Origin: Hormoscilla sp.
GTDB taxonomy: Bacteria > Cyanobacteriota > Cyanobacteriia > Cyanobacteriales > Desertifilaceae
NCBI GenBank assembly: GCA_051439505.1
Contig: JBFRWI010000044.1
Span: 1-40,177, forward strand
DNA: 40,177 bases
Direction: 5' to 3'
Below the pieces are notes generated by a model. The model saw only the letters and a program-made list of their open reading frames with translations. It had not been told where the DNA came from and did not search any database. The number at the start of each line of letters is the position of its first letter. Positions within the stretch are counted from its first letter, which is position 1. The position numbers and the translations under genes are program-made. Below, piece after piece: positions 8,754-32,490 of the stretch.

Positions 8754-10598
8754 ATGAAGCATCAAGAAAAAGTCCAATTTCATTTACTTGTGCTGCTGGG
8801 GTGGATGGCGATCGCGGCTATTTTACGCTTGACAAATTTAGGAGAAAAACCCCCTTGGGCCGATGAATTTTCCACCCTAGTTTTCAGTCTCGGTCGCGGT
8901 TTCAGAACTGTACACCTGGACCAAGTAATTACCTCAGATACTCTTTTGGCACCATTAAAACCCAACCCAGTTACCGATGTCAGCGCAGTGGTTCGTCACC
9001 TGATGAGTGAAACGAATCATCCCCCAGTATATTTTATGCTCAATCATCTCTGGTTGCAACTGTTTCCTGGAGAATTGGTATCCCTCTGGGGGGCCCGATC
9101 GCTGAGTGCCCTGCTGGGGATAATTTCCATTCCGGCCATCTTCGGCTTTAGTTGGTTAACCTTTCGTTCAGTTAAAGTTTGTCACCTGGCAGCAGTATTA
9201 ATGGCCGTTTCCCCCTATGGCATATATTTAGCACAAGACGCCCGCCATTATACTCTGGCAATTTTGTTAATTATCGCCTCCCTCAGTTGCCTGATCCTCG
9301 CCACCCAAGCTGTTAAATTGCACAGAACATGTCCCATTTGGTCAATCTTCATCTGGGTTAACATTAATAGCTTGGGTATGGCGGTCCATTACTTCTTTAT
9401 CCTCGTCATCGCTGCTGAAAGTTTGGTCATATTTTATCTGCTAATTAGACATCGAAACTACCCACATTGGGGGCGACTTGGCGCAACTGCTGCGGGCACC
9501 GCGATCGGGGTTTTGGTCTGGTTACCGGTGTGGCAGAACATTCCCGGTAGCCAGCTGACAAGATGGATTTATCATAGCCATTCTTTCGGGGATTTTCTCG
9601 CACCCGTGGCCAGAATTTTGGCTTGGACAACTACTATGCTGTTCGTGGTGCCCGTGGAAGGACAAACTTTACCTGTTATCCTCATCTCGGCATTGGCAAT
9701 TATATTTTTGCTGTTCTTCACAGTCAGACTTCTTATTCAAGGGATCAAAATTAGTCCCCATGGTTTCCCGATCGCGGTTTTGGGCGGCTTCCTGCTAGGG
9801 GCGATCGCCCTCATCTTCGGACTTACTTACGGTCTGGGCATTGATTTAACTCTAGTGGCCCGCTACCAATTTGTCTACTTCCCCGCCGCGATCGCCCTCT
9901 GCGCCGGTAGCTTTGCCAGCTTTTGGCACGACCCCACCCAGAGGCGAGGGGTGCGGTCAAAAGTAGTTGCGGCGGATCCCCCCCAAACCCCCCCTTGCAA
10001 AAGGGGGGGCTTCCGGAAGCCCCCCTTTTTAAGGGGGGTTTGGGGGGATCCCACGACTGGGAAGATCCATGAACGATCAACTGGTTTTGACCATACCCAG
10101 AGGCGAGGGGTAGCAATAATTTTGCTGGCGGGACTCATAGGGGGGCTGATGGTAGTTACTAACCTCGCCTATCAAAAGCCCGATCGACCGGACCTGGTGG
10201 TTGCAGACATTCTGGAAACTAGCAACTTAGAAGTTCCCGTCCTCATTGCCACCGTTCACAAAACCCACGAACAAACTGGAGAAATGATGGGGTTAGCTTG
10301 GGAACTGACTCACCTGGATCGTAACCCACTTCTGGTGGGCGGTGCCCACCCTACGAATGCAACAACTTTTGACCGCACCCGGATTAATTTTCTCCTAGCA
10401 CACAAAGAGGATGACCCCCTAGTTGCGACCCAAACTCTTCAGCAAACCCTGGATAAACTGCCCAAACCTTTAGAATTGTGGGTGGTGAATTTCTCCGCTT
10501 CTGTCAAGATTAAAGCCCAAGGTTGCATTAAAGACAAAAAATCCATTGCCCGAGTGGCGGGCTATCGATATCGACGTTATCATTGTTCTGCTTCCTAG
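8754..10598 (+). CDS. GT39/PMT-like membrane glycosyltransferase carrying in-frame repeat-derived inserts
   Basis: RLTNLGEKPPWADE, NHPPVYF and SPYGIYLAQDARHYTL motifs; a 53-codon MITE insert with duplicated TQRRGV. Confidence 0.9.
   Translation: MKHQEKVQFHLLVLLGWMAIAAILRLTNLGEKPPWADEFSTLVFSLGRGFRTVHLDQVITSDTLLAPLKPNPVTDVSAVVRHLMSETNHPPVYFMLNHLWLQLFPGELVSLWGARSLSALLGIISIPAIFGFSWLTFRSVKVCHLAAVLMAVSPYGIYLAQDARHYTLAILLIIASLSCLILATQAVKLHRTCPIWSIFIWVNINSLGMAVHYFFILVIAAESLVIFYLLIRHRNYPHWGRLGATAAGTAIGVLVWLPVWQNIPGSQLTRWIYHSHSFGDFLAPVARILAWTTTMLFVVPVEGQTLPVILISALAIIFLLFFTVRLLIQGIKISPHGFPIAVLGGFLLGAIALIFGLTYGLGIDLTLVARYQFVYFPAAIALCAGSFASFWHDPTQRRGVRSKVVAADPPQTPPCKRGGFRKPPFLRGVWGDPTTGKIHERSTGFDHTQRRGVAIILLAGLIGGLMVVTNLAYQKPDRPDLVVADILETSNLEVPVLIATVHKTHEQTGEMMGLAWELTHLDRNPLLVGGAHPTNATTFDRTRINFLLAHKEDDPLVATQTLQQTLDKLPKPLELWVVNFSASVKIKAQGCIKDKKSIARVAGYRYRRYHCSAS
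9949..10098 (+). mobile_element. MITE family C, 150 bp, in frame within a CDS, 9-bp TSD
   Basis: TIRs GGGTGCGGTCAAAA and TTTTGACCATACCC; TSD AGAGGCGAG at 9940-9948 and 10099-10107. Confidence 0.93.
10334..10380 (-). repeat. REP-like 21-mer plus a solo family-C end inside the CDS
   Basis: GGTGGGCGGTGCCCACCCTAC (10334-10354) and GCAACAACTTTTGACCGCACCC (10359-10380), the latter matching the reverse complement of 9949-9970 at 21/22. Confidence 0.8.
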
Positions 10599-10683
10599 GA
10601 CTGTCTCGCCTGTCACCGTTTCGTCTGTCACCGGTTTTTTCTTTATTAATTTCCCAATTATCAATTTTTCATTTCCAAATTGC

Positions 10684-10814
10684 TTATACCATTTTCTCAA
10701 AAATAATCGACAATTTTTAAGCATTATGCTATTAGTCGGTTTTAACCGACTTTAGCTATTAGCCGGGGGTTTTAACCCCCGGCGGGCTGACAGCGAAGTA
10801 CACATTTGGTATTA
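10684..10814. mobile_element. Family B MITE-like element between convergent genes
   Basis: About 113 bp are homologous to the reverse complement of 23400-23512. Imperfect short terminal inverted ends TTATACCATTT / ATTTGGTATTA. Confidence 0.75.
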
Positions 10815-11354
10815 ATAGGGACCAAAAAATAAGTTTCCGGGAGCATCTGGGTCATCGCTGTGATGGAATTGCCAGATCAGCACCATAAATTCCTTTTTGC
10901 TGATACCGCCGTCATCATCTAGGTCTAACTTGGGAAATATTTCCACTGCTAATTCCTCGGGAATCCGCCAACTCCGATAAAATGTTTTGTATTCTTCCAG
11001 ACTAATCACCCCATCTCCATTCAGGTCTAATAGCTCGAATATATGACTGGCCAGATCCAGAACCGTTTGGTACATCTCCGTGTTATTGATGCGCCGATCG
11101 CCATGTTCGAGCCATTCGGATAGCTCTATTTTACCATTATTATTTTTATCCGCATCTTTTCGCAGATCTTCCCAGTCTTCCATAAACTCAGCATGCAGCC
11201 GATCATATTCCGGGGTACCCGGGATTAAATTACGAGATGCGACAACATTTTGAAATATTTCCTCATAATCCTCTTTTTCCACCACGCCGTTTCCATTGGC
11301 ATCATAGACGTGAAACAGCCGCGTCCACTTTCTCCTTTGCAGTTCTGTGAGCAT
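10812..11354 (-). CDS. EF-hand calcium-binding protein (calerythrin/SCP-like)
   Basis: Four EF-hand loops: DANGNGVVEKED, DKNNNGKIELSE, DLNGDGVISLEE, DLDDDGGISKKE; ends PGNLFFGP. Confidence 0.93.
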   Translation of the reverse strand: MLTELQRRKWTRLFHVYDANGNGVVEKEDYEEIFQNVVASRNLIPGTPEYDRLHAEFMEDWEDLRKDADKNNNGKIELSEWLEHGDRRINNTEMYQTVLDLASHIFELLDLNGDGVISLEEYKTFYRSWRIPEELAVEIFPKLDLDDDGGISKKEFMVLIWQFHHSDDPDAPGNLFFGPY

Positions 11355-11472
11355 TGTTTACCTTCCTCCATTTGGTACAGCCAGTCTGGGGTTAATCCCA
11401 TTTCTACCTTACCACGGTCTTGACCTATTTTTCTTAATAAATTTTAATTGTTTCCCGGGCTACACTGGCTTT

Positions 11473-11583
11473 CTATAGCAGTTTAACTGGTATCTTAGCT
11501 GAAGAGCAAATTCCCGAGTGAGATACCTTTGGAGTCTAGATCACACTCGGAAACTTGCCACAACTCAAATAGGATTGCTATAG
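11473..11583. mobile_element. Short degenerate MITE with CTATAGCA...TGCTATAG ends
   Basis: 8-bp terminal inverted repeat and an internal 16/19 stem GCAAATTCCCGAGTGAGAT / ATCACACTCGGAAACTTGC. Confidence 0.65.
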
Positions 11584-11585
11584 TA

Positions 11586-12707
11586 TTAATCGGCAGCGAT
11601 CGCCGAACGTTCCAGAGGACAAATTACCGAAAGTTTGCCCTGAAAATCAGTGAACGTCACTTCATCCTTGTAATGGCGGGGAGTTTTCATTAGCAACCGC
11701 CAAGCTTCCCCAGCGTCAACTAAATTCATTCGACCTGGATAGTGGATTTCTAACAACTCTTGCACCACCGGATAATAGTCCGAGTTCAGACTCGGAAAGA
11801 TATGATGTTCCGTGTGATAAGAAAAGTTAAAATGCAGCAAATCGAAGAGTTTGGGCATCCGTAGGGAAACGCTATTAATCAAGGGATCGTTCACCTCAGT
11901 CATCCGGCAAAACATGTGATTGGTGAAGATATAGAACATCCCGCCAGCATGACCAATTGCCAGGGGGAGAAAATAGCCGAGCGCCAGTTTCAGCGGGTGA
12001 AACCCTAGATAAAATAGGATGCTCAAATGAATGGCGAAAATTCCCAGACATTCACAGGCGATCGCCCACCGGTCATTAGGGCTAACCGTAAAAGCTGCGG
12101 GCACATAATCAACGGATTTATTATTAAATAATAGCACCGATGTCAGATTGCGGAAATTATGCACTATCCAGGAGCCCGCCATGCCTACAGTCAGCCAAAA
12201 TGGATGGACTTCCAGGGAGGGGACAAAGAGATTTTGGATCCATTTTCCCCAAGTTAAGGGCTGTTGGTGAAGGTAATTGCGGTCTGGATCCTCTAAGGAA
12301 TTTGTCTTGTTGTGATGTACGAGATTATGGAGAGATTTCCACTGGGTCGGCGGCATAAACCACATGCTTAACCCGATAAAGCTAATCAGATAAGTCAGTC
12401 GAGACTTTTTCTGTACGCTACCGTGCATCATATCGTGGGAACTAAATAGCAAAACTATGATGCTATTTCCCATGATTGATGCTAGAGGTAGATAAAGCCA
12501 TAAAAGATAGACCGGCCAACGATCTAAATGAGCGGCAATTCCCCATCCTAGCATTAAAATGGCCAGATTGATTAACAGGATTACCACCTTACTCGCATCT
12601 GGCTGAAATGCTTCCGCTGGCAGCAATGGACGCAGGGTTTTGGCATAGACTGATTGGTGAATTAGCAGCCCTTCGGATGCACCCTTCATCGTTTTTTCTG
12701 TGTTCAT
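11586..12707 (-). CDS. Membrane fatty-acid desaturase family protein
   Basis: Three His boxes: HDMMH, HNLVHH and HTEHH. Confidence 0.92.
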   Translation of the reverse strand: MNTEKTMKGASEGLLIHQSVYAKTLRPLLPAEAFQPDASKVVILLINLAILMLGWGIAAHLDRWPVYLLWLYLPLASIMGNSIIVLLFSSHDMMHGSVQKKSRLTYLISFIGLSMWFMPPTQWKSLHNLVHHNKTNSLEDPDRNYLHQQPLTWGKWIQNLFVPSLEVHPFWLTVGMAGSWIVHNFRNLTSVLLFNNKSVDYVPAAFTVSPNDRWAIACECLGIFAIHLSILFYLGFHPLKLALGYFLPLAIGHAGGMFYIFTNHMFCRMTEVNDPLINSVSLRMPKLFDLLHFNFSYHTEHHIFPSLNSDYYPVVQELLEIHYPGRMNLVDAGEAWRLLMKTPRHYKDEVTFTDFQGKLSVICPLERSAIAAD

Positions 12708-12936
12708 TTTCTAAGACCTTGGTAAAAAACATCCTCATATTTCCACTGAGACTCAGTAGTTTTGAGGTCTAATTTCCGATCTCTAATCATCTTACATCAT
12801 TGGCGAACAAAAATTTTTCTGCTATCTTCAGATCGTCACATCATTTTTTTACCCTACCACAGGTCGGCAGCTTTTTGGGTGAAGAAATGTTAACTTTTAT
12901 GTCAGGCGATCGCATAACCGGACTTTATCTAACAGT

Positions 12937-13884
12937 TTAACGAAGATCTTGACGACGAATGCCAGTCATGTATTTCCCCAAAAAGGGCAAACCCCCGATC
13001 GCGGGAATCAGGTACCGGGAAGTACATAATAGTCCTAGGGCCGCAGCAGTTGATGCGGTAAAATAAGGTTGATAAAATAGAATCAGGGCCGCATCCCGGG
13101 TGCCAACCCCCGCAAAGGTTAAGGGCAGTAATCCTGCTAAAATGGCCAGAGGAGAAAGGGCCAGATTCGCCAAAAACGGCGTCCAAGCTTTCAGGGCCAG
13201 AATGAAAAACCAGATTTGCATTAAATGTCCGAACCAAAGGAAAATAGAAGTGAAGGAAATGAGGGCTAACTGGCCCCGATCGCGCCAAAAGTAGCCGTGC
13301 ATTTCCTCCCAAGCGGTTCTCAAAGTTGCTAACTTAGACCGCATTTTGCCGGGCGCCACCTTAGAGGCCAGGGAAAAGAATCCTTGGGCAAACTTTCCCG
13401 AGGCCAGCAGCAGCGTACAAAAAGCCAGTCCGCTAGCAACGCTGACCGTCATCACCCCAAATAACCAATCTTTGCGAGGATACAATGTCAAGCCAAAGGC
13501 ACACCACAACAGCAGCGAGGACATGTCACAGGCTTTTTCAAACACCACCAAGGACAAGGATAAAGAACCGCTCAAATTTCCCCGTTCGCGGAGAAAATAG
13601 GCTTTAGCAATATCTCCCATCTTCGATGGTAAAATCATATTTAAGCTGCTAGCAGCCAGAATCAGCTTATTGGCTTCCGCAAATCCCAAGTTAGCTTGAG
13701 ACGGTGTCAATTGTTGCAGTCGCCAGGATGTCAGCATGGTGAGGGGAATTACCATACTCAGACTAACCGCCATCCACAGGCGATCGCAGTCCCGGAAGAC
13801 TTGCAGCAGGGCCTGAAAATCAATATTCCAATAAATAAATGCCAGAATTACTAAGCTAACAGCTAGGGAAATTATTCGTTTCAT
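12937..13884 (-). CDS. Lysylphosphatidylglycerol synthase TM domain (UPF0104, flippase-like) protein
   Basis: NMILPSKMGDIAKAY, VVFEKACD and LPLTFAGVGTRD motifs. Confidence 0.88.
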   Translation of the reverse strand: MKRIISLAVSLVILAFIYWNIDFQALLQVFRDCDRLWMAVSLSMVIPLTMLTSWRLQQLTPSQANLGFAEANKLILAASSLNMILPSKMGDIAKAYFLRERGNLSGSLSLSLVVFEKACDMSSLLLWCAFGLTLYPRKDWLFGVMTVSVASGLAFCTLLLASGKFAQGFFSLASKVAPGKMRSKLATLRTAWEEMHGYFWRDRGQLALISFTSIFLWFGHLMQIWFFILALKAWTPFLANLALSPLAILAGLLPLTFAGVGTRDAALILFYQPYFTASTAAALGLLCTSRYLIPAIGGLPFLGKYMTGIRRQDLR

Positions 13885-14678
13885 ATTGGATCTGCCAGAT
13901 ATAGCATAGTGCGATACAATAAATAAATCATACCCCGTGCATCGACCCAGTTCCCATGCAACCGCTGCAAATCGGAAACTAATTGTTTATATACCGTTCC
14001 AGTGCGCGGTAGATAAGATATACTCTGGGTTCTGCCAATTAATCCCCCTAGATCCAACTCCTGCTTGTAGCTAAAGTTGTGGCAACGGCAATTCCCGAAC
14101 AGGGGACTATTAAGTAGCGCTGCCGCCGAAAAGACTCGCTTCTCAGCAGGATGATCGCTTGATGCTACTCGGATCGACTCCCTGTAGCTGCGGGTAAAGG
14201 GGTCCGATCGATCTAAATCGTACCACATTAAAGCTAGTCGTCCCGTCTCTTTGAGAATGCGGCGGAACTCTGGCAAGCACAGTTCCGGGTTAAACCAGTG
14301 AAACGCTTGACAGCAAACTACCAGATCCGCAGAGGCATCTGGTAGGAGAGTTGCTTCCGCCGTCCCATCCCGGAATTCTACCAAGGGATACGCTGCTGCG
14401 GCTGTTCTCATGGCCCCGTTGGGCTCGATCGCCAGGACGCGCACCCCCCGATCGGCCAGCAAACGGGAGGCGATCCCGGTACCGGCACCGATATCAGCGG
14501 CTACCGGTCGGTCCAACCCCTGCAAGATCCTGTCTATGGCCCCGGCTGGATAACTCGGTCTATACTTGACATAATCGGCTGCCCGATCGGAGAATCGATC
14601 CAGCGGGTTCATCTGATGTAGGGCCGGAGTCTGATTTTCTACTCGCAAGGGTCCGATCGCATAAGCGTGCCTGTTCAT
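13881..14678 (-). CDS. Class I SAM-dependent methyltransferase (start may be downstream, e.g. 14612)
   Basis: RFSDRAADYVKYRPSYP, ADIGAGTG and QAFHWF motifs. Confidence 0.92.
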   Translation of the reverse strand: MNRHAYAIGPLRVENQTPALHQMNPLDRFSDRAADYVKYRPSYPAGAIDRILQGLDRPVAADIGAGTGIASRLLADRGVRVLAIEPNGAMRTAAAAYPLVEFRDGTAEATLLPDASADLVVCCQAFHWFNPELCLPEFRRILKETGRLALMWYDLDRSDPFTRSYRESIRVASSDHPAEKRVFSAAALLNSPLFGNCRCHNFSYKQELDLGGLIGRTQSISYLPRTGTVYKQLVSDLQRLHGNWVDARGMIYLLYRTMLYLADPI

Positions 14679-14713
14679 TTTATTGCCAATCTGTTAAGAT
14701 AATCAAATCACAA

Positions 14714-14774
14714 CTGACATGGTAGGCAATGCCCACCCTACCATAGCTGACATGGTGGACAATGCCCACCCGAC
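14714..14774 (-). repeat. Two tandem degenerate REP-like copies (33-bp period) upstream of the phytochrome gene
   Basis: CTGACATGGTAGGCAATGCCCACCCTAC and CTGACATGGTGGACAATGCCCACCCGAC. Confidence 0.85.
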
Positions 14775-14795
14775 AAAATCACAATTGATAATAGC

Positions 14796-17039
14796 ATGAA
14801 TTTACAAACAGTTGATTTGAGCCAGTTCGATCGCGAACCCATTCACCTCTATGACTACATTCAACCCCACGGCCTCCTGCTAGCCCTAGCAGAACCCCAC
14901 CTGACCATCTTACAAGTGAGTAATAACACCTACGATTGGTTCGGCGTTCCCCCCGAACAGATGCTAGGAAAACCCCTGCAAAACTTTTTCTCGGCATCTG
15001 AGATCGAGAGATTAAAGCAAATCATTGATAATGATGATTTTGCTTGTCTGAATCTGGTAAAAATTAAATTAGCCCAACAAGAAAAACTCATCAATGGGAT
15101 AGTAAATCGCAGTCAAAATGAATTGATTATCCTGGAATTAGAACAAGCTCATTCAACCGGAAATAACAACTTCATGGAATTTTATCATGTAGTAAAATGT
15201 TCTGCCAATAAACTGCAAAAAACATCCAGCTTCTCCCAAATGTGTCAACTCCTGGTCAAAGAAGTGCGAAAAATAACCGAATTTGACCGAGTCATGCTAT
15301 ATAAATACGATCGAGATTGGCACGGTCACGTGATCGCCGAAGATAAAAGAGCGGACCTGGAAGCATTTCTAGGATTACATTACCCAGCGGCAGATACGCA
15401 ACCACCCCGAGAACTATTTACCTTAAACTGGGTGAGGGTAATTCCCGATATGAATGCAGAACCGGTGAAACTTATCCCCAGCCAGAATCCGGTCACAAAT
15501 AATCCCCTGGACCTGACATTTTCCGTGCTCAGAGGCGTGTCATCCTGCCATATAGAATACTTGCAAAATATGGGGGTAGGTGCGAGCATGTCTATATCTT
15601 TAATTAGAGACCAGAAACTCTGGGGACTAATCGCTTGTCATCACTACTCTGCCAAGCAGGTTGCTTATGAAGTGCGGGAAGCTTGTGAATTCCTCGGACA
15701 AGTGATCTCCGTAGAACTGACGGTCAAAGAAAAGGATGAAAACTATGAATATCGCGTGGAAGTGAAAGAACGGCAAGGAAAATTGGTAGAATATATGTCT
15801 GCCGAAGATAATTTTATTGATGGCTTAGTTAAGCATAAACCGAATTTACTAGATTTGGTGCGGGCTGAAAGCGCAGTGGTGTGGTGGGGCGAAGATTGTA
15901 CGAAGCTAGGCATAACTCCTGAAGATGCAGATATCCAGGAATTAATTGCCTGGCTAGAACAGCAGGGAGATGAAAAGGTTGACGAAAAAGTTTTTTATAC
16001 AGATGAGCTGCCTCGCATTTATCCGGCAGCAGAAAAGTATAAAGATATAGCTAGTGGGTTACTCGCCATTTCTATCCCCGATCGCAATTATATACTCTGG
16101 TTTCGACCGGAAGTGATTCAAACGGTAAATTGGGCCGGAGATCCCAATCAGGCCATTATCAAAAAAGTGGATGCCCGAGGAACTGTGCGTCTGACTCCTC
16201 GGGGATCCTTTGAAGAATGGAAAGAAATTGTCCGCTGCAAGTCCTTACCCTGGAAACCCTGTGAAATAGAGGGGGTAAGGGAACTCAAAAGTGCGATCGT
16301 GAATATTGTCCTGCGTCAAGCCGACGAACTGGCCTCATTAGCGCGGGAACTAGAACGTTCCAATGCCGAATTAGAAAAATTTGCCTATGTGGCCTCCCAT
16401 GACTTACAAGAACCATTAAATCTCGTGTCTAGCTACGTGCAGCTGTTGGAGATGCGCTACGAAGATCGACTCGATCGAGATGCCAAGGAGTTCATCGGCT
16501 TTGCCGTGGAGGGAGTTACCCACATGCAGAAATTGATAGATGACTTATTAGCTTACTCGCGGGTGGGGACCAGAGGCAAGGAGTTTGCGCCCATTGTCGT
16601 TGAGACAGTATTAGATCGCGCCCTCACCAATTTGCAGATCCGGATCGCCGAAAGTGGGGCAGTCATTACCACCGACCCCTTGCCCACACTCAACGGTGAT
16701 AGCACCCAACTGATCCAACTGTTCCAGAACCTGATCGGCAATGCCATCAAGTTCCGCAGCGACCAACCTCCGCAAATTCACATAGGCGCAAAACAGCAGT
16801 CCCACGAGTGGCTATTCTCCGTCCGGGATAATGGCATTGGTATAGATCCCCAGTTCGCCGATCGCATCTTCACGATCTTTCAGCGCCTGCACGCCCGGGA
16901 CGAGTATCCCGGCACCGGCATCGGTCTAGCGGTCTGCAAGAAAATAGTCGATCGCCACGGCGGGCGCATCTGGGTAGAATCAGAACTGGGGCAGGGATCG
17001 ACCTTCTACTTTACGCTTCCAATCCAGTCAGAATTGTGA
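14796..17039 (+). CDS. cph1: Cyanobacterial phytochrome (PAS-GAF-PHY-histidine kinase), Cph1/AphA type
   Basis: DREPIH..IQPHG, FDRVMLYKY, GAF bilin-binding CH (VSSCHIEYLQNMGV), tongue WAG and PRGSF, H-box ASHDLQEPL, and HATPase G boxes. Confidence 0.93.
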   Translation: MNLQTVDLSQFDREPIHLYDYIQPHGLLLALAEPHLTILQVSNNTYDWFGVPPEQMLGKPLQNFFSASEIERLKQIIDNDDFACLNLVKIKLAQQEKLINGIVNRSQNELIILELEQAHSTGNNNFMEFYHVVKCSANKLQKTSSFSQMCQLLVKEVRKITEFDRVMLYKYDRDWHGHVIAEDKRADLEAFLGLHYPAADTQPPRELFTLNWVRVIPDMNAEPVKLIPSQNPVTNNPLDLTFSVLRGVSSCHIEYLQNMGVGASMSISLIRDQKLWGLIACHHYSAKQVAYEVREACEFLGQVISVELTVKEKDENYEYRVEVKERQGKLVEYMSAEDNFIDGLVKHKPNLLDLVRAESAVVWWGEDCTKLGITPEDADIQELIAWLEQQGDEKVDEKVFYTDELPRIYPAAEKYKDIASGLLAISIPDRNYILWFRPEVIQTVNWAGDPNQAIIKKVDARGTVRLTPRGSFEEWKEIVRCKSLPWKPCEIEGVRELKSAIVNIVLRQADELASLARELERSNAELEKFAYVASHDLQEPLNLVSSYVQLLEMRYEDRLDRDAKEFIGFAVEGVTHMQKLIDDLLAYSRVGTRGKEFAPIVVETVLDRALTNLQIRIAESGAVITTDPLPTLNGDSTQLIQLFQNLIGNAIKFRSDQPPQIHIGAKQQSHEWLFSVRDNGIGIDPQFADRIFTIFQRLHARDEYPGTGIGLAVCKKIVDRHGGRIWVESELGQGSTFYFTLPIQSEL

Positions 17040-17120
17040 TAAGATGTTAAATAGGGTAAAGTTATGTTACAAATATCCTTTTTAATCCCATTCACATTTA
17101 CAATCCAGCCTACGGTAAAC

Positions 17121-17558: not shown

Positions 17559-17622
17559 GATTGACAGTTAGTAGTTGCGTCAACAGCGCAACTGTTAGCA
17601 TTGAATTGAGTTAGAGAATTTT

Positions 17623-23341: not shown

Positions 23342-23343
23342 GT

Positions 23344-23381: not shown

Positions 23382-23399
23382 TGATGGCGAATTGTTCGC

Positions 23400-23512: not shown

Positions 23513-23594
23513 CCTGTAGGAGTTTATATCATATTTGTACCATATTCTGTGTCTACCGAACCCAACGGACTCCCCCTGCCCGCATCGGACGCCC

Positions 23595-23645
23595 GCACCC
23601 TCAAGGGTGCGGCTAAAGGAACACAGACCCCGCCTGCGCGGGCTA
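23595..23645. repeat. Double-hairpin repeat GCACCCTCAAGGGTGC...CCCGCCTGCGCGGG
   Basis: Homologous to the interior of the MITE at 32577-32699. Confidence 0.75.
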
Positions 23646-23664
23646 TGACAATTTACAATTTACT

Positions 23665-25398
23665 ATGAACGATCGACAATTTACAAGAGACAAAACTAGC
23701 TTCCGTACAGTTTTAGTTATAGCGGGCATATTTTTCTGCTTCGTGCTGGGGTTTTCTCTCCATCGTCATTATAGCTTCTTTACCAGTTACGATCAAGGGA
23801 TTTTTAACCAGGTTTTCTGGAATAATCTCCACGGACGCTGGTTTGAAAGTTCTCTCTCTTCCGCCCTTTCTACTAATGTCGTTCACGATAACTCATTTCC
23901 CGAAGTGGGTTATCGCCGCTTGGGACAGCATTTTACTCCCGCTTTGCTGCTGTGGCTGCCTATCTATGCCCTGTTTCCTTCCCCCGCTACTCTCTTGGCG
24001 ATCCAGGTGACGCTGATTGCGGCTGCTGGCGTGCTACTCTATGTTTTGGCCAGAGTTTATCTCTCTCCTCGACTGGCTTTGATGATTACTGCTAGTTATT
24101 ACTGTGGCAATGGGGTAGTCGGACCGGCCTTTTCTAATTTTAACGATTTGTGTCAGATTCCCCTATTTATCTTTGGGTTGCTGCTAGCCCTGGAAAAACG
24201 AGTTTGGTGGCTATTTTGGTTGCTGGCAGTTGGGACCCTGGCGATTCGGGAAGATAGCGGCGTGGTATTGTTTGGAGTGGGAGTCTATATGGTGGGCAGT
24301 CGCAGGTTTCCTGGGGCGGGGTTGGCACTATGCACTCTCAGCTTTGGCTATGTAATGTTGGCGACCAATGTGCTGATGGCAATGTTTTCTGAGGATGTCT
24401 CTCGCCGGTTTATGATCGAACATTTCGGTCAGTATGCCCGGGGCAATGAAGCTTCCACTCTGGATATTCTCTGGGGCATGATCTCTCAACCTCATAAGGT
24501 GATTATAGATCTTTTCTCTCCCTTTGGCAAGACTCTGAATTTCTTGGCCGGACAATGGTTGCCTTTGGCTTTTGTTCCCGCTTTTTCTCCCGCTTCCTGG
24601 GCGATCGGGGGTTTTCCGATGCTGCAACTGATGCTTCAAGATGGCAGTTTTGCCCTGCGCTTGAATTGGCGTTATGCTATTACTGTTGTCCCCGGCATGT
24701 TTTATGGTACCATTTTATGGTGGTCCGCCCATGGGGACAGGGCGGGATCCCCCCCAAACCCCCCCTTGCAAAGGGGGGGGCTTCAAAAGCCCCCCTTCTT
24801 AAGGGGGGTTTGGGGGGATCCGGCGACTAGGAGATCCCATGGGGATAAGTTTACCCCGATGCTGCGTCGCTTCTGGATCGCTTGCTGGGCGATCGCCTTA
24901 ACCTTTACCCTATCATCTAGTCCCCATCAGGTATTTTATTTTCTGATACCTGATTCTCGGGAACCTTTAGCCTATACTACTCTCAGTCAGCGTTGGGAAC
25001 ATGTGGGTCATATCCGCAGTTTGATGCAGAAAATTCCCCCTGATGCTTCCGTTTCGGCAACTACTTTCCTGGTGCCTCATTTGTCCGGACGCCGGGAAGT
25101 TTTACGTTTGCCTGCTTTGCAACTGCGGAATGATTCTGCTGAGGTGGTGTGGGTGGACTATGCGATCGCGGACTTCCAGCATTTCCTGCAATACCTACCT
25201 GCCTTCAAGTTTTTCGGTCCCCAAATGTCAGCTACAATGATAGCAATTGACAATAGTTTAGCTGCCGGTTTGTATGGGATAATGGAAGTAAAAGATGGAG
25301 TGGTGTTGCTAGAAAAAGGCAAGTTATCTCCTAGACAAGCTCTGATAGAGTGGGAGAGTTTGCAGCGAAGAGTGCGTAATGCGATCGCAGCGCCATAG
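23665..25398 (+). CDS. DUF2079 membrane protein with a 36-codon repeat-derived insert
   Basis: YDQGIFNQVFWN, LGQHFTP, IPPDASVSAT and PHLSGR motifs; the insert is bounded by duplicated HGD. Confidence 0.88.
   Translation: MNDRQFTRDKTSFRTVLVIAGIFFCFVLGFSLHRHYSFFTSYDQGIFNQVFWNNLHGRWFESSLSSALSTNVVHDNSFPEVGYRRLGQHFTPALLLWLPIYALFPSPATLLAIQVTLIAAAGVLLYVLARVYLSPRLALMITASYYCGNGVVGPAFSNFNDLCQIPLFIFGLLLALEKRVWWLFWLLAVGTLAIREDSGVVLFGVGVYMVGSRRFPGAGLALCTLSFGYVMLATNVLMAMFSEDVSRRFMIEHFGQYARGNEASTLDILWGMISQPHKVIIDLFSPFGKTLNFLAGQWLPLAFVPAFSPASWAIGGFPMLQLMLQDGSFALRLNWRYAITVVPGMFYGTILWWSAHGDRAGSPPNPPLQRGGLQKPPFLRGVWGDPATRRSHGDKFTPMLRRFWIACWAIALTFTLSSSPHQVFYFLIPDSREPLAYTTLSQRWEHVGHIRSLMQKIPPDASVSATTFLVPHLSGRREVLRLPALQLRNDSAEVVWVDYAIADFQHFLQYLPAFKFFGPQMSATMIAIDNSLAAGLYGIMEVKDGVVLLEKGKLSPRQALIEWESLQRRVRNAIAAP
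24738..24845 (+). mobile_element. TIR-less family C core inserted in frame (108-bp net insert)
   Basis: Core GATCCCCCCCAAACCCCCCC...GGGGGGTTTGGGGGGATC; direct repeat CCCATGGGGA at 24728-24737 and 24836-24845. Confidence 0.85.
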
Positions 25399-25449
25399 CA
25401 ATGACCATTGTTCGTCGGCCTGTAGAGCGATCGCCACAAAAGTTAAATC

Positions 25450-25473
25450 AGCAACCAGCGCTCGCTGGTTGCT
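25450..25473. terminator. Putative hairpin terminator between convergent genes
   Basis: 10-bp perfect stem AGCAACCAGC/GCTGGTTGCT with a 4-nt loop; U-tracts are weak. Confidence 0.45.
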
Positions 25474-25514
25474 TCAGCAGGATCGGAGTGTAGCATATAC
25501 TATAACTGCGGCAC

Positions 25515-26240: not shown

Positions 26241-26390
26241 AGTAGATGCCTCATATGATCGATTGAGAACCTTGCGGTTTTTGTTTAAGTAAATCTACAT
26301 TGGGCACGGCTGTCATTTCGCAAACTTTAGTTTCGCCCTATTAGATAAAATTGCTGTAAAATAGTCTTTTGTTTGAGGGAACATAAGTTA

Positions 26391-27191
26391 ATGGACGATC
26401 GCCACCTCTTAACTTTGCTGAGTGATTTCGGTTTGAGTGACATCTATGTGGGGGTGATGAAGGGGGTAATTGCCCGGATTAACCCCAGTTTAACAGTAGT
26501 GGATATCACCCACAACATTCCGCCCCAGAACATTCTTGCTGCTAGTTTCTGCCTGAGAGAGGCCCTGCCCTATTTTCCCCCTGGGACCGTTCATGTCGCC
26601 GTTGTCGATCCCGGAGTCGGGAGTCCCAGGAGGGCGATCGCCCTCCATCTGTCGGACTGTTATCTGGTCGGACCCGATAACGGCATATTCAGCGGCATTT
26701 TGGCGGAAAATCCCGTGCTGGCAGCGGTCGAACTGGACAACCCAGAATATTGGCATACACCCACACCCAGCAGCACCTTTCACGGTAGAGATATCTTTGC
26801 GCCAGTAGGGGCCCATCTGGCCAGCAGCGAAGCGTGTCCTCTAGCTGACCTGGGAAACCCGATCGACCCAGAAACTTTAGTCCAGTTACCCCTACCCGCA
26901 TGCATCCATACAGAAACTAGCATCACTGGCTGCATTCAGTATATCGACCACTTTGGCAATTTGATTACCAATATTCCCGGCAGCAGCGTTCGGGGAAAAC
27001 AGTGGTATATTAAATTAGATAACCAGGTGATTAACGGGAGCAATACTTATGCAGACAGCCCGCCACGGTCGGCGATCGCCTTAGTAGGAAGTCATGGTTG
27101 GGTAGAAATTGCTGTCAATGGCGGGAATGCTCAATCTCAACTTCAGATGGACTGGCAAGATAAAATAGAAGTAAATTTTCATGACATTTAA
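26391..27191 (+). CDS. SAM hydroxide adenosyltransferase (DUF62; chlorinase/fluorinase superfamily)
   Basis: LLSDFG, VVDPGVGSPRR, GPDNG, STFHGRDIFAP and YIDHFGNLITN motifs. Confidence 0.92.
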   Translation: MDDRHLLTLLSDFGLSDIYVGVMKGVIARINPSLTVVDITHNIPPQNILAASFCLREALPYFPPGTVHVAVVDPGVGSPRRAIALHLSDCYLVGPDNGIFSGILAENPVLAAVELDNPEYWHTPTPSSTFHGRDIFAPVGAHLASSEACPLADLGNPIDPETLVQLPLPACIHTETSITGCIQYIDHFGNLITNIPGSSVRGKQWYIKLDNQVINGSNTYADSPPRSAIALVGSHGWVEIAVNGGNAQSQLQMDWQDKIEVNFHDI

Positions 27192-27201
27192 CTAGCAAGC
27201 T

Positions 27202-27861
27202 ATGACTCAATTGCAAGCATCTGAACCGGAAATATATCAAGGACAGTTTGGTTCCTTTACTATTACAGAGGCCGATCGATCGGGCGTAATTATCTATCGC
27301 ACGGGCTTAAACATAGCGGCCTTCTGCTTTGCCCTCGGCAGTACCCTAGTGTTGTGGCAAGGAGGCACCCCAGCTGTTATTAACGCCCTCACTCCTTTAT
27401 ATGCAGTGTTTTGTTTAGCCCTAGGGGTCAGCTTACTTACCATTCACATCTATTTGGCAGTGCTGCACCGCGCATTACAGTTGTTTTGGGCGATCGGGGT
27501 CCTGGCCGCGATCGGATTTAGTCTTTTCTACAGCGAACCTTTGGCATTAACGGTCTACAACCACCCAACCACTTTATTTGGCATCGGCTTCACTTTCGCC
27601 GCCTTGACAGGAATTTACTTTAAGGAAGCCTTTTGCTTCAATCGTCTGGAAACCAAGTTGCTGACTCCCTTAGTACCAATACTGCTGTTAGGACATCTGA
27701 CTGGCATCTTACCAGTCATGACAGAACGAGTCTTGCTAGCTACCTGGGCAGTGGGGTTTGTAGTGTTTGCCCTGCGCAAGGCCCTGCAAGCTATCCCCCC
27801 TGACATTGGCGATAAGTCGGTTTTTGCCTATCTCAAACAGCAGCGTCAGACAGCAGGATAA
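27202..27861 (+). CDS. DUF2301 integral membrane protein
   Basis: YQGQFG.F.IT..DR..V..YR, IHIY, FKEAFCF and DIGDKSVF motifs. Confidence 0.88.
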   Translation: MTQLQASEPEIYQGQFGSFTITEADRSGVIIYRTGLNIAAFCFALGSTLVLWQGGTPAVINALTPLYAVFCLALGVSLLTIHIYLAVLHRALQLFWAIGVLAAIGFSLFYSEPLALTVYNHPTTLFGIGFTFAALTGIYFKEAFCFNRLETKLLTPLVPILLLGHLTGILPVMTERVLLATWAVGFVVFALRKALQAIPPDIGDKSVFAYLKQQRQTAG

Positions 27862-27938
27862 TAGCAAAACATTGAAGTATTGCAGGTAGGTGAGGGGTGA
27901 TTGGTGATTGGTGAAAGCTAAAATGGGGTGCTATCAAA

Positions 27939-28463
27939 GTGATATCAGTTCTAATCAGTTTCTTTCTAGCAGGAGTTCCTCTAGAAGAAACTTCATTACT
28001 GCAACCAACTCCTTGGCAGATGCACGAACAGGTCTGTCGTCAAATGCCTATCGGCCTAGGAATTCCCGGATTTCAACCAGGAATTCACAAAAGTTATGTC
28101 CTGCACATGTTTGGCGTTCCCACTGGGACTGAGGAAGGCTATTGGCCCCATACCGATGCTGTTTTCTATGAACTGATTCGCGATCGCGTCAGTTTGGGCT
28201 TCCTGTTCGATCGAAATTCTGGAGTGCTTCGCCAAACCGAAGCTTCCTTTGCGACTGAGTTTGATTTTCAGGAGGTGCTGAAAACCCTCGATGCCATGTC
28301 AGGTTGTCAGATCGATCGGGAAATCAAACTCGGACTCCAACAGGTTTGGACTCGCCAGTCACCCCGCTACTCCTTTACCCTCGGTCCCCTTGAAGGCATC
28401 ATTGAGTGGGAAACTCAGCGCGATCGCATCTACATCGGCATCTGGCAATCAGACCTACATTAA
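27939..28463 (+). CDS. Hypothetical exported protein
   Basis: Hydrophobic N-terminus; LGFLFDRNSGVLRQTEASF...DRIYIGIW resembles a domain I recall at the C-termini of cyanobacterial Ser/Thr kinases. Confidence 0.7.
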   Translation: MISVLISFFLAGVPLEETSLLQPTPWQMHEQVCRQMPIGLGIPGFQPGIHKSYVLHMFGVPTGTEEGYWPHTDAVFYELIRDRVSLGFLFDRNSGVLRQTEASFATEFDFQEVLKTLDAMSGCQIDREIKLGLQQVWTRQSPRYSFTLGPLEGIIEWETQRDRIYIGIWQSDLH

Positions 28464-28477
28464 TATTTGGTCAGTTG

Positions 28478-28498
28478 GTAGGGTGGGCACTGCCCACC
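28478..28498 (+). repeat. GTAG-tagged REP-like 21-mer
   Basis: GTAGGGTGGGCACTGCCCACC between convergent genes. Confidence 0.9.
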
Positions 28499-28544
28499 AC
28501 GTCAGTTGTCTGCTAACTACTAGCCTGCCTTTCTGAGATGCACA

Positions 28545-29057: not shown

Positions 29058-29063
29058 CGAATA

Positions 29064-29789: not shown

Positions 29790-30000
29790 TTTACTCTCTA
29801 GATCGACTAACGCTTCTTGCTCGTTACAGCTGTTGTTGCTCGGTCAACATAGGTATTTTGACCAGTAGCGCCGCAACTGTAGCCATTATAACAGTATGAA
29901 GGGCGATCGCAATCTCCTCAACGCATTTATAAGCAGTTCTTCGTTTGTCGGAGAGAGCTTCAAATTACCATATAGCAAGGGTTCTACCCTTGTTTCCCCG

Positions 30001-30127
30001 CCGCAGTCGGATCGTCTGAGAGCCTTGGTCGGATCGTCTGAGAGCCTTGGTCGGATCGTCTGAGAGCCGCAGTCGGATCGTCTGAGAGCCGCAGTCGGAT
30101 CGTCTGAGAGCCTTGGTCGGATCGTCT
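30001..30127. repeat. 22-bp tandem repeat, about 5.8 copies, two variants
   Basis: CC(GCA/TTG)GTCGGATCGTCTGAGAG units at 30001, 30023, 30045, 30067, 30089 and 30111. Confidence 0.95.
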
Positions 30128-30133
30128 CCCCGC

Positions 30134-30285
30134 GGGTGTGGTCAAAACCCGTTGATAGTTCTAGGGCCCTCCCAGTTGCCCCGATCCCCCCAAACCCCCC
30201 ATAAAAAGGGGGGCTTCCGGAGCCCCCCCTTTTGGAAGGGGGGGTTTGGGGGGGATCGGGCGATCAACTACTTTTGACCACACCC
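30134..30285 (-). mobile_element. MITE family C, intergenic copy, 152 bp, perfect 9-bp TSD
   Basis: Perfect TIRs GGGTGTGGTCAAAA / TTTTGACCACACCC; TSD TCTCCCCGC at 30125-30133 and 30286-30294. Confidence 0.95.
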
Positions 30286-30606
30286 TCTCCCCGCCAACGG
30301 AGAACTCCGAACTCGCATCACCCCCTTATTGTGCAACGCCCTCATCGAAATACCAACCGCCTAATTTCAAGCACAATAAACCAAGACCAGCTATATCGCT
30401 GGTCTTGGTCAAAATTGTCCATCAGTTGTCTAGAGGAAACCCGAACTGCGCGTTCCCAAGGCGTAGGCCGGTCAAGTGTTATCTTTTGTTTCTCTTCTAT
30501 ATATTGTAGCAACCTACACTATTTTTCGATCGTAAAAATTTAGATGCATTTGACAGACTTTACATAAATAAATTTTATCTGATGCTAGCTAAAGCATAAA
30601 TCAGCT

Positions 30607-32490
30607 CTATGAGAGCTTGCGGTCAGCGATCGCCTGTTGGGGCCGCCCCCAGAGGACAGTCTCTTGCTTATAGATCACCATACCAGGTTTAGCGCCCTTG
30701 GGCTTATAAACATGCTTGGGGGTTGTGTATATCACCGGCACCTGGTCGCTTTGGCGTCCTTGACTATAATACCCTGCCAGGTCGGCAGCAAATTGTAAAT
30801 CTGCTTCATCAGGCAGTTTACCAGGTTCTAAGCGCATCAGCACGTGACTGCCGGGAATTTCTTGGGTGTGAAACCAGAGGTCATAGTCATTGGCGATCCG
30901 AAAAGAAAGCTGGTCATTCTGCCGGTTGTTGCGACCGATCAACAGTTCAAAACCGCTGGGTGTCTGGAAACGATAAGGAACAGAGGTATCAGTCTGGCGG
31001 CGACGGGGCAGGTTACCCTTGTCCAGATATCCCTGATCCATTAATTCCTCGCGAATTTCTGTGAGAGTTTGCAAATCTTCCTTGGTCTGGTAGCTATCCA
31101 GTTGCCAGAGGGTAGCTTTCACCAGTTCCAGATACTCCATTTCTGCCTGCACTTGGTTGAATAATGGTTCAACGGCACTGCGGGCCCGTTTCAGCTTCTG
31201 GTGACGCTTGTAAAGAGATTGGGCATTACCGACGGCATTCTTTTCGGGATCTAGGGGAATGGTAATGGGTTGGTTGGTTTGGAAGTCGCACAGGGAAATG
31301 GATGTCATTCCCGGTTGCCACTCGTGCAAATAGGCCATCAGCAGGTCAGCTTGTTGACGATACTCGTCGGCGTTGTCCGACTGTTGTAACCGTTCCGAGA
31401 ATTTCAGGGCTTTTGAGGTCTGCTTTTCTAAGATATGCGCGAGTTTTTGCAGCAGTTGCTGGCGCAGTTGGGTGAATTCCTGGCTGTTCAACTTGCTGGT
31501 ATAGTACTGGGCGAGCAATTCCTGGGTAGAAGGGACTGGTGCCGGGGTGTGGTCAAAAGTAGTTGTAGAGGATCCCCCCAAACCCCCCTTAAAAAGGGGG
31601 GCTTCCGGAAGCCCCCCCTTTTGGAAGGGGGGGTTTGGGGGGGATCCGGCGGCTGAGGAGGCCCTAGAACTATCAACGGGTTTTGACCACACCCCTGCGC
31701 CCCAACCCATAACTGTATATCCCTCTTGAGTCCAGGCCGGATGAAATTGCCCTGTTTCTAGGGCCTGCAACCAGAATTGCCAGCATTTCCACAATTGCTG
31801 CCAGTCTCCATCTGTGAGAGTATCTGTAGGTTTATTTGGCTCTAAAAGAGCTGCTGCGACCATTGATTTTACCAGGGTTGGACTCAGTCCGCGATAGCAT
31901 TTGAGCAGTTGACGCCACAGCGGTCCGGGAACTAATGCCACTCGCTCTTGCCAGCGACCGAAAGATTCGTTCAAACTGGGAATAGCATTGGTCAGGGCTG
32001 GTGGTAGTGAGTAGGGCTGACCGGTGAGAATAGGACGGACGCTGGATTTTTCTTCGCTTACCTGGTGGGCAACGGTGACGATCTGGTTTTGCTGATTGGT
32101 TAAAATGACGTTACTGTATTTGCCCATGATCTCTACGTACAGGTGCCAGAGGGCTGGTTCTCCCGGACGCTTGGCAAATTGCAGGTCTAGGGCCCTTTCC
32201 CAAGGTGCAACCGGTTCGATGGCCACCCAGGCGAGACCATTCAGTTGATGTCGCAGTTGGTCGCTAAAGGTAAAGGTATCGGGTATTTTCGGCGGTGGGT
32301 CGCCGATGCATATATGTGCCGCTTGGGGATGCCAGCAGATATTTAGCCAACTTCGCCCCTTCAGGGTTCGCAATGCTAGGGCGATATTGTGCCGATCGCG
32401 CTGATAGACTGTTTCTAGTCTGGCGGGCACCAGGCGATCGCGCAGTTCGGCACAAGCAGCAATTAGGGTAGTAAAGTCAACGGGTTGCAC
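30607..32490 (-). CDS. rqcH: RqcH/NFACT (FbpA-like) ribosome quality-control protein with an in-frame MITE insert
   Basis: MQPVDFTTL, PWER, EIMGKYSN, NAQ.LYK..QKLKR, GRNNRQND, WFHTQEIPGSHV and KPKGAKPGMVIY motifs; GTG start. Confidence 0.92.
   Translation of the reverse strand: MQPVDFTTLIAACAELRDRLVPARLETVYQRDRHNIALALRTLKGRSWLNICWHPQAAHICIGDPPPKIPDTFTFSDQLRHQLNGLAWVAIEPVAPWERALDLQFAKRPGEPALWHLYVEIMGKYSNVILTNQQNQIVTVAHQVSEEKSSVRPILTGQPYSLPPALTNAIPSLNESFGRWQERVALVPGPLWRQLLKCYRGLSPTLVKSMVAAALLEPNKPTDTLTDGDWQQLWKCWQFWLQALETGQFHPAWTQEGYTVMGWGAGVWSKPVDSSRASSAAGSPPNPPFQKGGLPEAPLFKGGLGGSSTTTFDHTPAPVPSTQELLAQYYTSKLNSQEFTQLRQQLLQKLAHILEKQTSKALKFSERLQQSDNADEYRQQADLLMAYLHEWQPGMTSISLCDFQTNQPITIPLDPEKNAVGNAQSLYKRHQKLKRARSAVEPLFNQVQAEMEYLELVKATLWQLDSYQTKEDLQTLTEIREELMDQGYLDKGNLPRRRQTDTSVPYRFQTPSGFELLIGRNNRQNDQLSFRIANDYDLWFHTQEIPGSHVLMRLEPGKLPDEADLQFAADLAGYYSQGRQSDQVPVIYTTPKHVYKPKGAKPGMVIYKQETVLWGRPQQAIADRKLS
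31545..31694 (+). mobile_element. MITE family C, 150 bp, in frame within rqcH
   Basis: Perfect TIRs GGGTGTGGTCAAAA / TTTTGACCACACCC. Flanks CTGGTGCCG and CTGCGCCCC match only 5/9. Confidence 0.93.

Follow-up and report, generated by a model that had tools for sequence, protein, structure and literature searches.

Rickettsia palindromic elements (RPEs) are ~150-bp palindromes found in frame in unrelated genes with a predicted peptide of ~50 amino acids, and nearly half of them are reported to lie in ORFs (PMC10969869, PMC3733652). CGTC-tagged REPs are reported without a dedicated transposase. QMITE2 of Coxiella is described as a 150-190 bp element with terminal inverted repeats (TIRs), direct repeats (DRs) of 7-11 nt, a REP inside and TIR-less short forms; most of its copies lie between genes, some occur in frame in the middle of an ORF, and it is a target for another IS (PMC5896051). 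The cyanobacterial MITEs Nezha, Muzha, MaeMITE and those of Anabaena, together with BRE/ERIC ORF fusions, represent TIR/DR elements of 130-224 bp that fold stably; sites with and without the element are described, as are ORF fusions, BRE lying inside about 9 genes (PMC3184786). Intragenic REPs are short repeats translated as neutral loops (PMC3733652). These REPs, as well as STRR and SDR repeats, are shorter than the element analyzed here and lack TIRs and target site duplications (TSDs). The SDR repeats of cyanobacteria were reportedly treated in a 2008 paper by Elhai.

The window, a stretch of 40,177 nucleotides from the genome of Hormoscilla sp. (G000), a marine cyanobacterium, was claimed in a sequence-only reading to hold four related copies of a MITE, and all four were present. 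The element is ~150 bp long, with the TIR GGGTGYGGTCAAAA, a 9-bp TSD and a hairpin core. The features were as follows.

8754..10598, forward strand: host gene, 614 amino acids, GT-C/PMT-like membrane protein similar to its neighbor at 6958-8598
9949..10098, forward strand: full-length MITE of 150 bp with both TIRs, in frame, adding 53 codons including the TSD
9940-9948 and 10099-10107, forward strand: perfect 9-bp TSD AGAGGCGAG flanking the copy in the GT-type gene
10316..10380, forward strand: second in-frame repeat insert in the GT-type gene, in which a GGTGGGC..GCCCACC palindrome precedes a single TIR end (at 10380)
23665..25398, forward strand: host gene, DUF2079 membrane protein of 577 amino acids (PF09852, E 5e-106)
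24728..24845, forward strand: copy lacking TIRs, made up of the core and a MITE-type inner flank, net 108 bp or 36 codons
30134..30285, no strand assigned: full-length intergenic MITE of 152 bp, located where a 22-bp tandem array ends; its TSD is TCTCCCCGC
30607..32490, reverse strand: host gene rqcH (NFACT family), 627 amino acids, E 5e-64 to solved RqcH
31545..31694, reverse strand: full-length MITE of 150 bp without an intact TSD, in frame in rqcH (residues 266-315)

The host ORFs were open, and open frames also existed on the antisense strand (stop-to-stop 9875..10168 and 31505..31729). The claim that a 150-bp coding copy plus its TSD amounts to 53 codons held for the GT-type gene, but not for rqcH: the latter copy is flanked by CTGGTGCCG and CTGCGCCCC, with no intact TSD, and its insert is a net 150 bp or 50 codons, because removal of exactly 150 bp gave a gap-free empty site in 4/4 congeners. 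The DUF2079 copy, located between 10-bp direct repeats CCCATGGGGA at 24728 and 24836, was TIR-less with a net length of 108 bp as proposed, and had an empty site in G002; the intergenic copy was likewise 152 bp, which is not a multiple of 3 (3n). The boundaries of the second insert in the GT-type gene were approximate (net +21 bp relative to G002/G003). The label "GT39" given to this host was consistent with its similarity to the neighboring PMT_2 protein (E 5e-16), but the protein had no Pfam or NCBIfam match of its own. When four sets of DNA contigs from a single study were mapped on 8600-28400, depth spikes were found at repeats, and among the joints listed, none skipped the GT-type or DUF2079 coding copy, with rqcH outside this range. 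Two RNA runs contained a 0.05-0.07 share of the words.

A genome-wide census identified 149 TIR-bounded copies of up to 400 bp in G000, which were short, transposase-free and dispersed, with a stable fold. The proposed TIR/TSD-bearing nature of the element was confirmed: among 144 scorable copies (5 at contig ends were left out), 109 carried a 9-bp repeat that was perfect or had a single mismatch and 29 had at least 4 mismatches, and for candidate TIR pairs repeats of the former kind were found in 114/407, compared with 0/407 in the shifted control. The predicted RNA fold of each copy was about -93 to -96 kcal/mol (z -7 to -9; -8.65 for the GT-type copy), TIR pairing closing one long hairpin. 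An inward TIR lay within 110-130 nt of 282/312 poly-C/poly-G core matches, and this core, unlike a free REP (RAYT-type), was not dispersed without TIRs. Other palindromic fillers were mostly TIR-free (e.g., only 32/477 and 58/356 with a TIR), and several different fillers occurred inside one common TIR shell. The commonest length in the core-bearing subfamily was 150 bp (non-genic copies: 150 bp, 21 copies; 151, 13; 152, 13; 149, 7; 153, 7). The exact TIR pair was present in 7/151 genomes of the order, and searches of openly available full-text literature returned no description of the TIR.

The sequence-only reading had suggested seeking an IS that shares the TIR and a 9-bp TSD. Such an IS was found in G000 (G000:C102:12439-14879) and other genomes, where a transposase ORF of 471-481 amino acids lay between the same TIRs and a perfect 9-bp TSD. 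Same-TIR elements of 1.92-2.0 kb were present in named Hormoscilla and Microseira records, with transposases 52-71% identical. An initial view of the C102 transposase as part of a foreign IS that had inserted into a MITE was abandoned. The best family was ISKra4 (NF033572, 179.6 bits), below the NCBIfam cut-off of 205, and the candidate parent is therefore filed as ISKra4-like only. The UPF0236 domain scored above its cut-off (38.3 against 24.3 bits), and D, D and E motifs of a putative DDE triad appeared, by eye, to be conserved across the transposase ORFs. At E 1e-60, the transposase was detected in 2/151 genomes of the phylum. Published p-MULT elements have IRs of 18-39 bp ending in C and DRs of 8-9 bp, and ISMpr2 of Moorea starts with GGGTGYGG and has a 9-bp DR (PMC3942029, including Table S1). 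The ends of the parent agreed with p-MULT 4 in having IRs ending in C and a DR of the 8-9-bp class, although its IRs were long and imperfect, about 65-140 bp instead of 18-39 bp. The ISKra4-group ISs (p-MULT 4; ISMpr2, ISLesp2) also share with it a 9-bp DR and a transposase of the 460-aa class (PMC3942029); the TIR starts like ISMpr2 and diverges after base 8, and GGGTGTGGTC/GGGTGCGGTC did not occur in Table S1 of PMC3942029. Some ISKra4/p-MULT 4 members insert upstream of sigma-A promoters, whereas no promoter-anchored insertion was seen at the MITE sites.

The element thus resembles RPEs in being a ~150-bp palindrome in frame inside unrelated genes, but only 8/142 to 22/126 copies were genic or coding, and its TIRs, 9-bp TSD and candidate transposase set it further apart. 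Compared by description, it shares the above features of QMITE2, but the mid-ORF cases of the latter are hypothetical proteins, while several hosts here are housekeeping enzymes, and the transposase class differs from the ISKra4-like partner. In comparison with the cyanobacterial MITEs above, the partner is ISKra4-like and not ISNpu3, and one TIR shell holds several fillers. The in-frame inserts are a fresh example of a known phenomenon, with no new mechanism, and not an element built for proteins.

Family-derived inserts, predicted as loops of 30-57 amino acids, were identified in at least 17 genes of G000. The expectation of many modified proteins genome-wide was borne out to that extent, but the window was atypical, with 3/4 copies coding compared with 22/126 genome-wide (binomial P 0.019); the proteins called intact are so at the DNA level, as open frames. 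Hosts included the conserved housekeeping genes lnt, rqcH, rsmG and menC/D/E, without stops or frameshifts. In DNA-level alignments with four congeners (G001, G002, G003, and G004), the sought empty sites were clean in 6/10 genes: rqcH, DUF2079, hydroxy-acid oxidase, rsmG, lnt (3/4 congeners) and a kinase. In 5/10 genes (the GT-type gene, menE, menC, menD, and lnt), the loop concerned was occupied by an unrelated repeat in at least one congener. The protein-level assignment of menC, menD and menE as empty sites was rejected, since congeners carry other repeats there. For the PTS host, no orthologue was detected in the four congeners with the query used, and ycaO, present as adjacent pieces in G004 with only 53-60% identity, was left out of the comparison.

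The GT-type gene had no empty site in any of the four congeners. G004 carried the same copy at the same site, with substitutions but no indel, and a different repeat occupied the MITE site in G001, G002 and G003, being in frame in the same loop in G002 and G003. Between G000 and G004, dS was 0.15 and dN/dS 0.34 over 531 codons; insert and reading frame have been kept since these two genomes split. The shared insert had a dN/dS of 0.91 on 11 changes, and host flanks gave 0.16-0.47 in 36/36 pairs, values that mostly reflect time before insertion, windowed dN/dS being too noisy to use.

In the RqcH structure model, the insert was a low-confidence loop (pLDDT <50 over 267-311) with confident flanks, and is thus predicted to be disordered. 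In a set of 120 RqcH proteins from cyanobacteria, inserts of at least 8 residues, 47 in number, sat 20 residues upstream of the MITE site; STRR-like peptides occurred in RqcH homologues. No insert was found at the exact MITE site in any of 119 homologues. The insert in the hydroxy-acid oxidase lies 14 residues after the HGGRQ motif and splits a stretch that is gap-free relative to solved enzymes. This conserved stretch and the insert-free rqcH site speak against a reading in which loops alone are entered.

TIR-bounded copies were genic in 8/142 cases (5.6%), compared with 63-66% of random sites, genic status being assigned by a dicodon score of our own that failed to pick up the menE copy; an earlier classifier with fixed 150-nt flanks (6 genic/102), which also misses low-scoring hosts like menE, was replaced. 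Promoter or repeat targeting was not seen (18/107 MITE sites compared with 78/500 controls), -35 or -10 like hexamers showed no offset peak at the 107 MITE sites, and insertion site preference was weak; the scarcity in genes therefore points to selection. When lengths were tabulated modulo 3, genic copies were mostly 3n, as anticipated (6/8 compared with 48/134 non-genic, one-sided Fisher P 0.034), but less clearly so among core-bearing copies (6/8 compared with 37/85, P 0.09). A random genic hit was estimated to keep the ORF ~17% of the time. The coding share was 8/22 for one-TIR copies and 7/90 for two-TIR copies (P 0.002), half of the coding copies being without one TIR. Greater age of coding copies was unsupported by nearest-copy identity (0.91 compared with 0.94, P 0.18).

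We favor, with a probability of about 0.7, near-random transposition followed by purifying selection, the in-frame survivors being tolerated loops and not function. An ISKra4-like (p-MULT, prokaryotic Mutator) TIR pair around an exchangeable palindromic filler would form a non-autonomous MITE, which a transposase such as that of C102 may move in trans with 9-bp duplications. The counts suggest that most genic insertions are purged through a frameshift or stop, and most frame-keeping ones as well. Survivors would be copies that by chance have a 3n length (150 bp being commonest in this subfamily, and 9 a multiple of 3), that are GC-rich with some two of six frames open, and that mostly fall in loops and linkers tolerant of repeats, where they are probably translated as Pro/Gly-rich unstructured loops. 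Deletions were seen to trim a TIR or TSD, and a coding copy would become fixed in place because of this loss, presumably after insertion. With a candidate mobilizing enzyme, TSD and congener empty sites all in hand for RPE-like repeat-derived protein inserts, survival of in-frame insertions becomes estimable: ORF-keeping genic insertions numbered roughly 6-8 of 39-85 expected, assuming random targets and neutral intergenic copies. Further, the congeners provide a natural insertion scan marking tolerant loops in conserved proteins, and PPNPP/KGG/FDHT-type segments in these proteomes should be annotated as transposon-derived.

A wider version, which we hold only tentatively and think rather unlikely, is that one ISKra4-like TIR shell, common to distant cyanobacteria, has repeatedly captured locally common palindromes and time and again adds translated loops to housekeeping proteins (Lnt, RqcH, RsmG, MenC/D/E). 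TIR-removing deletions would immobilize coding copies and might rescue insertions that had at first broken the frame, as long as a wild-type chromosome copy persists; the genus would thereby map hot-spot loops overwritten repeatedly by unrelated repeats.

It is unlikely that the copies in open frames are cryptic knockouts, or passengers that do mild harm, with host proteins that are dead or dispensable and a genome laden with repeats in which selection is weak. In G001 the DUF2079 orthologue was apparently broken, and G004 had a partial one, the oxidase, with its insert in the conserved barrel, was truncated in G002, and the predicted mRNA fold of each copy is strong, all of which would fit; however, the housekeeping hosts free of stops and frameshifts and the frame kept in the GT-type gene argue otherwise, and the rarity of frameshifting genic copies (2/8) indicates selection on host ORFs.

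The sequence-only reading had proposed that length and composition let the element colonize genes, that is, an element itself selected to enter genes harmlessly through a 3n length, a 9-bp TSD and TIR frames that lack stops on either strand. This is improbable and already largely refuted by gene avoidance and by frame and length statistics. The modal length of 150 bp and a mild 3n excess in core-bearing non-genic copies (37/85, P 0.03, though copies share ancestry) are in its favor, but non-genic copies overall showed none (48/134, P 0.30), over half of copies were non-3n through homopolymer slippage, sister subfamilies with the same TIR measured 121-179 bp and were not 3n, and same-TIR elements of other genomes were 3n in 9/35. 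Both TIR-set frames were open in 17/30 3n copies, but two of six frames were closed in 30/30, and mean open frames (2.23 of 6) equaled dinucleotide shuffles (2.07). The 9-bp TSD is standard for the transposase class (PMC3942029). Genic copies did occur in both orientations, as claimed, and in two phases, and another assembly (P0121) has the same insert, again in frame, in a HEAT-repeat protein; the insert-peptide search, which picked out just 2 further proteins from 232 candidates, says little about spread.

Post-transcriptional removal or skipping of the hairpin (RNA excision or ribosome bypass), restoring the protein, is very improbable: the TIRs pair into one long hairpin, but an Rfam search with the MITE gave no match, half of the coding copies lack a TIR, and the strong bias of genic copies to open, 3n forms argues that the insert is read. 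Least probable of all is that repeat copies were stitched into genes during the short-read style assembly (232 contigs, many ending inside a MITE), as open-frame preference is not expected of mis-stitching, perfect site-specific TSDs match the congener empty sites, and the same copy is present in the independent assembly G004.

Four copies of the element were found in the window at the positions claimed by the sequence-only reading:

9949-10098, in the GT-type gene: MITE copy, 150 bp long and flanked by a perfect 9-bp TSD
24728-24845, in the DUF2079 gene: copy bounded by 10-bp direct repeats at a spacing of 108 bp, with an empty site in the congener G002
30134-30285, intergenic: MITE copy of 152 bp with a TSD
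31545-31694, in rqcH: MITE copy without an intact TSD

The lengths claimed for the first three copies (net 108 bp for DUF2079) were confirmed, as were the antisense open frames of the two full-length coding copies. The rqcH insert had been given as 53 codons including a TSD, but the protein alignment gave 50 residues (net 150 bp), and deleting exactly 150 bp produced a gap-free match to all four congeners. A 9-bp duplication may once have been present there and then been lost through a 9-bp deletion, since the base adjoining the left end is G in the studied assembly (G000) and A in all four congeners. In addition, a 10-mer resembling a TIR end (9930-9939, one mismatch) lies directly left of the first copy's left TSD, and the GT-type gene carries another in-frame repeat, bearing a single TIR end (10316-10380), in a loop that differs in all four congeners. 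The assembly comprised 6.47 Mb in 232 contigs (48% GC), of which the window is contig C44, and the comparison genomes G001-G004 belong to the same genus. In a homologue search the closest named RqcH came from Hormoscilla, and the organism is accordingly a probable Hormoscilla-like filamentous cyanobacterium.

Genome-wide, 149 TIR-bounded copies of ≤400 bp were identified, 100 of them with the poly-C/poly-G core. A 9-bp TSD with ≤1 mismatch flanked 109 of 144 scorable copies (control, 0/407). Several unrelated palindromic fillers share this TIR, and most of them are also common in free form, whereas the core of this MITE adjoins a TIR in 282 of 312 matches. The exact TIR pair occurred in 7 of 151 order-level genomes and in 5/5 chosen sequence handles, and one TIR half was present, among the matches listed, in named Hormoscilla, Prochloron, Microseira, Nostoc, Scytonema and other cyanobacterial records. 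A full-text literature search for this TIR gave no match, and no description of this MITE family appeared in literature listings. Three TIR-TIR miniatures of 40-41 bp without TSD were also detected (C2:69263-69303, C21:24638-24677, C165:14530-14569).

An IS with the same TIR and a perfect 9-bp TSD was sought and found at C102:12439-14879 (2441 bp, a single ORF of 471-481 aa). Named Microseira and Hormoscilla records contain 1.92-2.0-kb elements that share these ends and whose ORFs (several of them split) are 52-71% identical; one of the elements lies at three sites, two with a perfect TSD. Homologues were present in 5/5 handles tested, which may overlap these records and were not counted as independent. 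The best transposase family was ISKra4 (179.6 bits, under the 205 cut-off), and a UPF0236 domain scored over its cut-off. According to one survey, p-MULT elements have IRs of 18-39 bp with a terminal C and DRs of 8-9 bp, and ISMpr2 has ends GGGTGYGG and a 9-bp DR (PMC3942029); the exact TIR is absent from its Table S1. On these family scores and end features, the candidate parent is ISKra4-like.

To call genic copies, each empty site was modelled and scored with a self-trained dicodon measure. After 7 edge copies were dropped, 8 of 142 copies were genic, against 63-66% of 600 random positions. Tabulated by length, 6/8 genic copies were divisible by 3 (3n) and stop-free versus 48/134 non-genic copies (Fisher P 0.034), a difference that weakened in core-bearing copies only (P 0.09). 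The menE copy fell below the dicodon threshold, yet is genic by Pfam and congeners. A random genic insertion was computed to keep the ORF in ~17% of cases; assuming random targets, 39-85 frame-keeping insertions were expected versus 6-8 observed, and no promoter or repeat targeting that could explain this gap was seen at insertion sites. In a second census, a profile search that also admitted eroded copies gave 185 core-bearing hits. Of the 126 that lay clear of contig edges, 22 were in frame within coding-scored ORFs; the coding share was 7/90 with two TIRs, 8/22 with one and 7/14 with none, six TIR-less coding hits resembling a related free repeat. At least 17 inserts are family-derived, counting the DUF2079 and menE copies along with the 15 that retain a TIR, so that the expectation of many modified proteins held modestly, whereas three coding copies in four is not typical (P 0.019). 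Hosts included hydroxy-acid oxidase, Lnt, MenC, MenD-type, MenE-type, RsmG, a PTS protein, YcaO, kinases and WD40 proteins; a HEAT-repeat protein of another assembly (P0121) holds the same insert. Copies overlapping ORF ends supply a stop codon or possible N-terminal extension:

C214:30524-30673, ORF-end copy
C227:33790-33940, ORF-end copy
C183:23980-24133, ORF-end copy
C72:3570-3709, ORF-end copy
C26:31801-31941, ORF-end copy

Overall, the sequence-only reading was confirmed in part as an observation and supported in part as an interpretation. Near-random MITE transposition filtered by selection, taken as a whole, is the best explanation, with a probability of roughly 0.7. At the sequence level, TIR, TSD, empty sites and a parent with the same ends are established; gene avoidance, in-frame survivors, loop reuse and enrichment of TIR loss in coding copies were observed. 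The parent transposase would mobilize copies in trans, purifying selection would filter the insertions, the inserts would be translated, and trimming may immobilize copies.

DNA-level alignment of ten host genes with the congeners gave clean empty sites in six: rqcH (150), DUF2079 (108), oxidase (159), rsmG (129, one TIR lost), lnt (159, in 3/4 congeners) and a kinase (171). An unrelated repeat occupied the same loop of congeners in five genes, namely the GT-type gene, menE, menC, menD and lnt (G001), and in menD the MITE lies within such a repeat. The menE-, menC- and menD-type genes (menaquinone/phylloquinone-pathway domains; C132:74534-77112 and C169:2102-3970), labelled from domains and gene order, all carry the insert of this family, in loops where congeners hold other repeats. 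The 120 RqcH proteins compared have 47 inserts grouped after residue 245; only the insert of G000 lies at 265, corresponding to solved RqcH near residue 269; in the AlphaFold model, residues 267-311 (pLDDT <50) lie between confident domains, just ahead of a long helix. The oxidase insert is a counter-example, splitting a gap-free conserved stretch.

In-frame copies might alternatively be cryptic knockouts, residing in dead or dispensable proteins, which we consider unlikely. The DUF2079 and oxidase genes appear broken in some congeners. Host-flank dN/dS was 0.16-0.47 in all 36 pairs. The one pair that diverged after the insertion is G000-G004 for the GT-type gene (0.34), and its insert changes as neutral sequence would (3 synonymous and 8 non-synonymous changes, no indel).

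Somewhat less likely still is adaptation of the element itself to genes, its length and composition having been proposed to let it colonize them. Core-bearing copies have a modal length of 150, 37/85 of their non-genic copies are 3n (P 0.03), and both TIR-set frames are open in 17/30 3n copies; because copies share ancestry, this excess and these frames amount to one observation. In contrast, there was no 3n excess among all non-genic copies (48/134, P 0.30), 3n copies had on average as many open frames as dinucleotide shuffles (2.23 vs 2.07), two frames were closed in every 3n copy, and only 9/35 same-TIR elements of other genomes (36 minus one duplicate) were 3n. Removal of the hairpin from RNA is very improbable; each window copy forms a single extended hairpin (z -3.9 to -8.7), and an Rfam search of the element gave no match. 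An assembly artefact is the least probable; many further copies end at contig breaks, and a contig end (C111:1-132) carries what we take to be an adapter-like stretch, a sign of short-read assembly.

The element is a MITE, RPE-like in action where genic, and not an RPE. In-frame MITE fusions have been termed "not unusual", the ~150-bp RPEs representing the extreme case (PMC10969869), and precedents include intragenic REPs with a flexible-loop argument (PMC3733652) and cyanobacterial MITE-ORF fusions and BRE inserts (PMC3184786). Likewise, Coxiella QMITE2 has the same build, with some mid-ORF in-frame copies (PMC5896051). The MITE family studied here has a candidate parent of a named class and offers a useful natural insertion scan.

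In several copies, a second IS (464-aa ORF), presumably IS4/IS50-like by its appearance, interrupts the MITE core at one and the same A-run (C81:36974-39096, locus L148; also C135:77414, C153:2070 and C174:51981); the core therefore acts as a landing site. Other repeats in the window were as follows:

29978-30127, tandem array of a 22-bp unit
1227-1371, tandem array of a 29-bp unit
8578-8675, 23343-23398 and 102-172, 7-bp tandem repeats
1187-1213, 5122-5159, 8680-8717, 14711-14781, 28462-28509, 10717-10807 and 23390-23480, dispersed palindromic (REP-like) repeats

One REP-like family had 477 matches genome-wide. A single Rfam CRISPR-DR28 match at gathering score (32629-32652) is probably spurious, because it lies within a palindromic repeat without an array. 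Further, passenger genes appear to be carried by the TIR pair, since TIR-bounded, TSD-flanked elements of 1405 bp (C174:29000-30404, locus L156; 240 aa) and 854 bp (L111:2501-3354; 149 aa) carry non-transposase ORFs.
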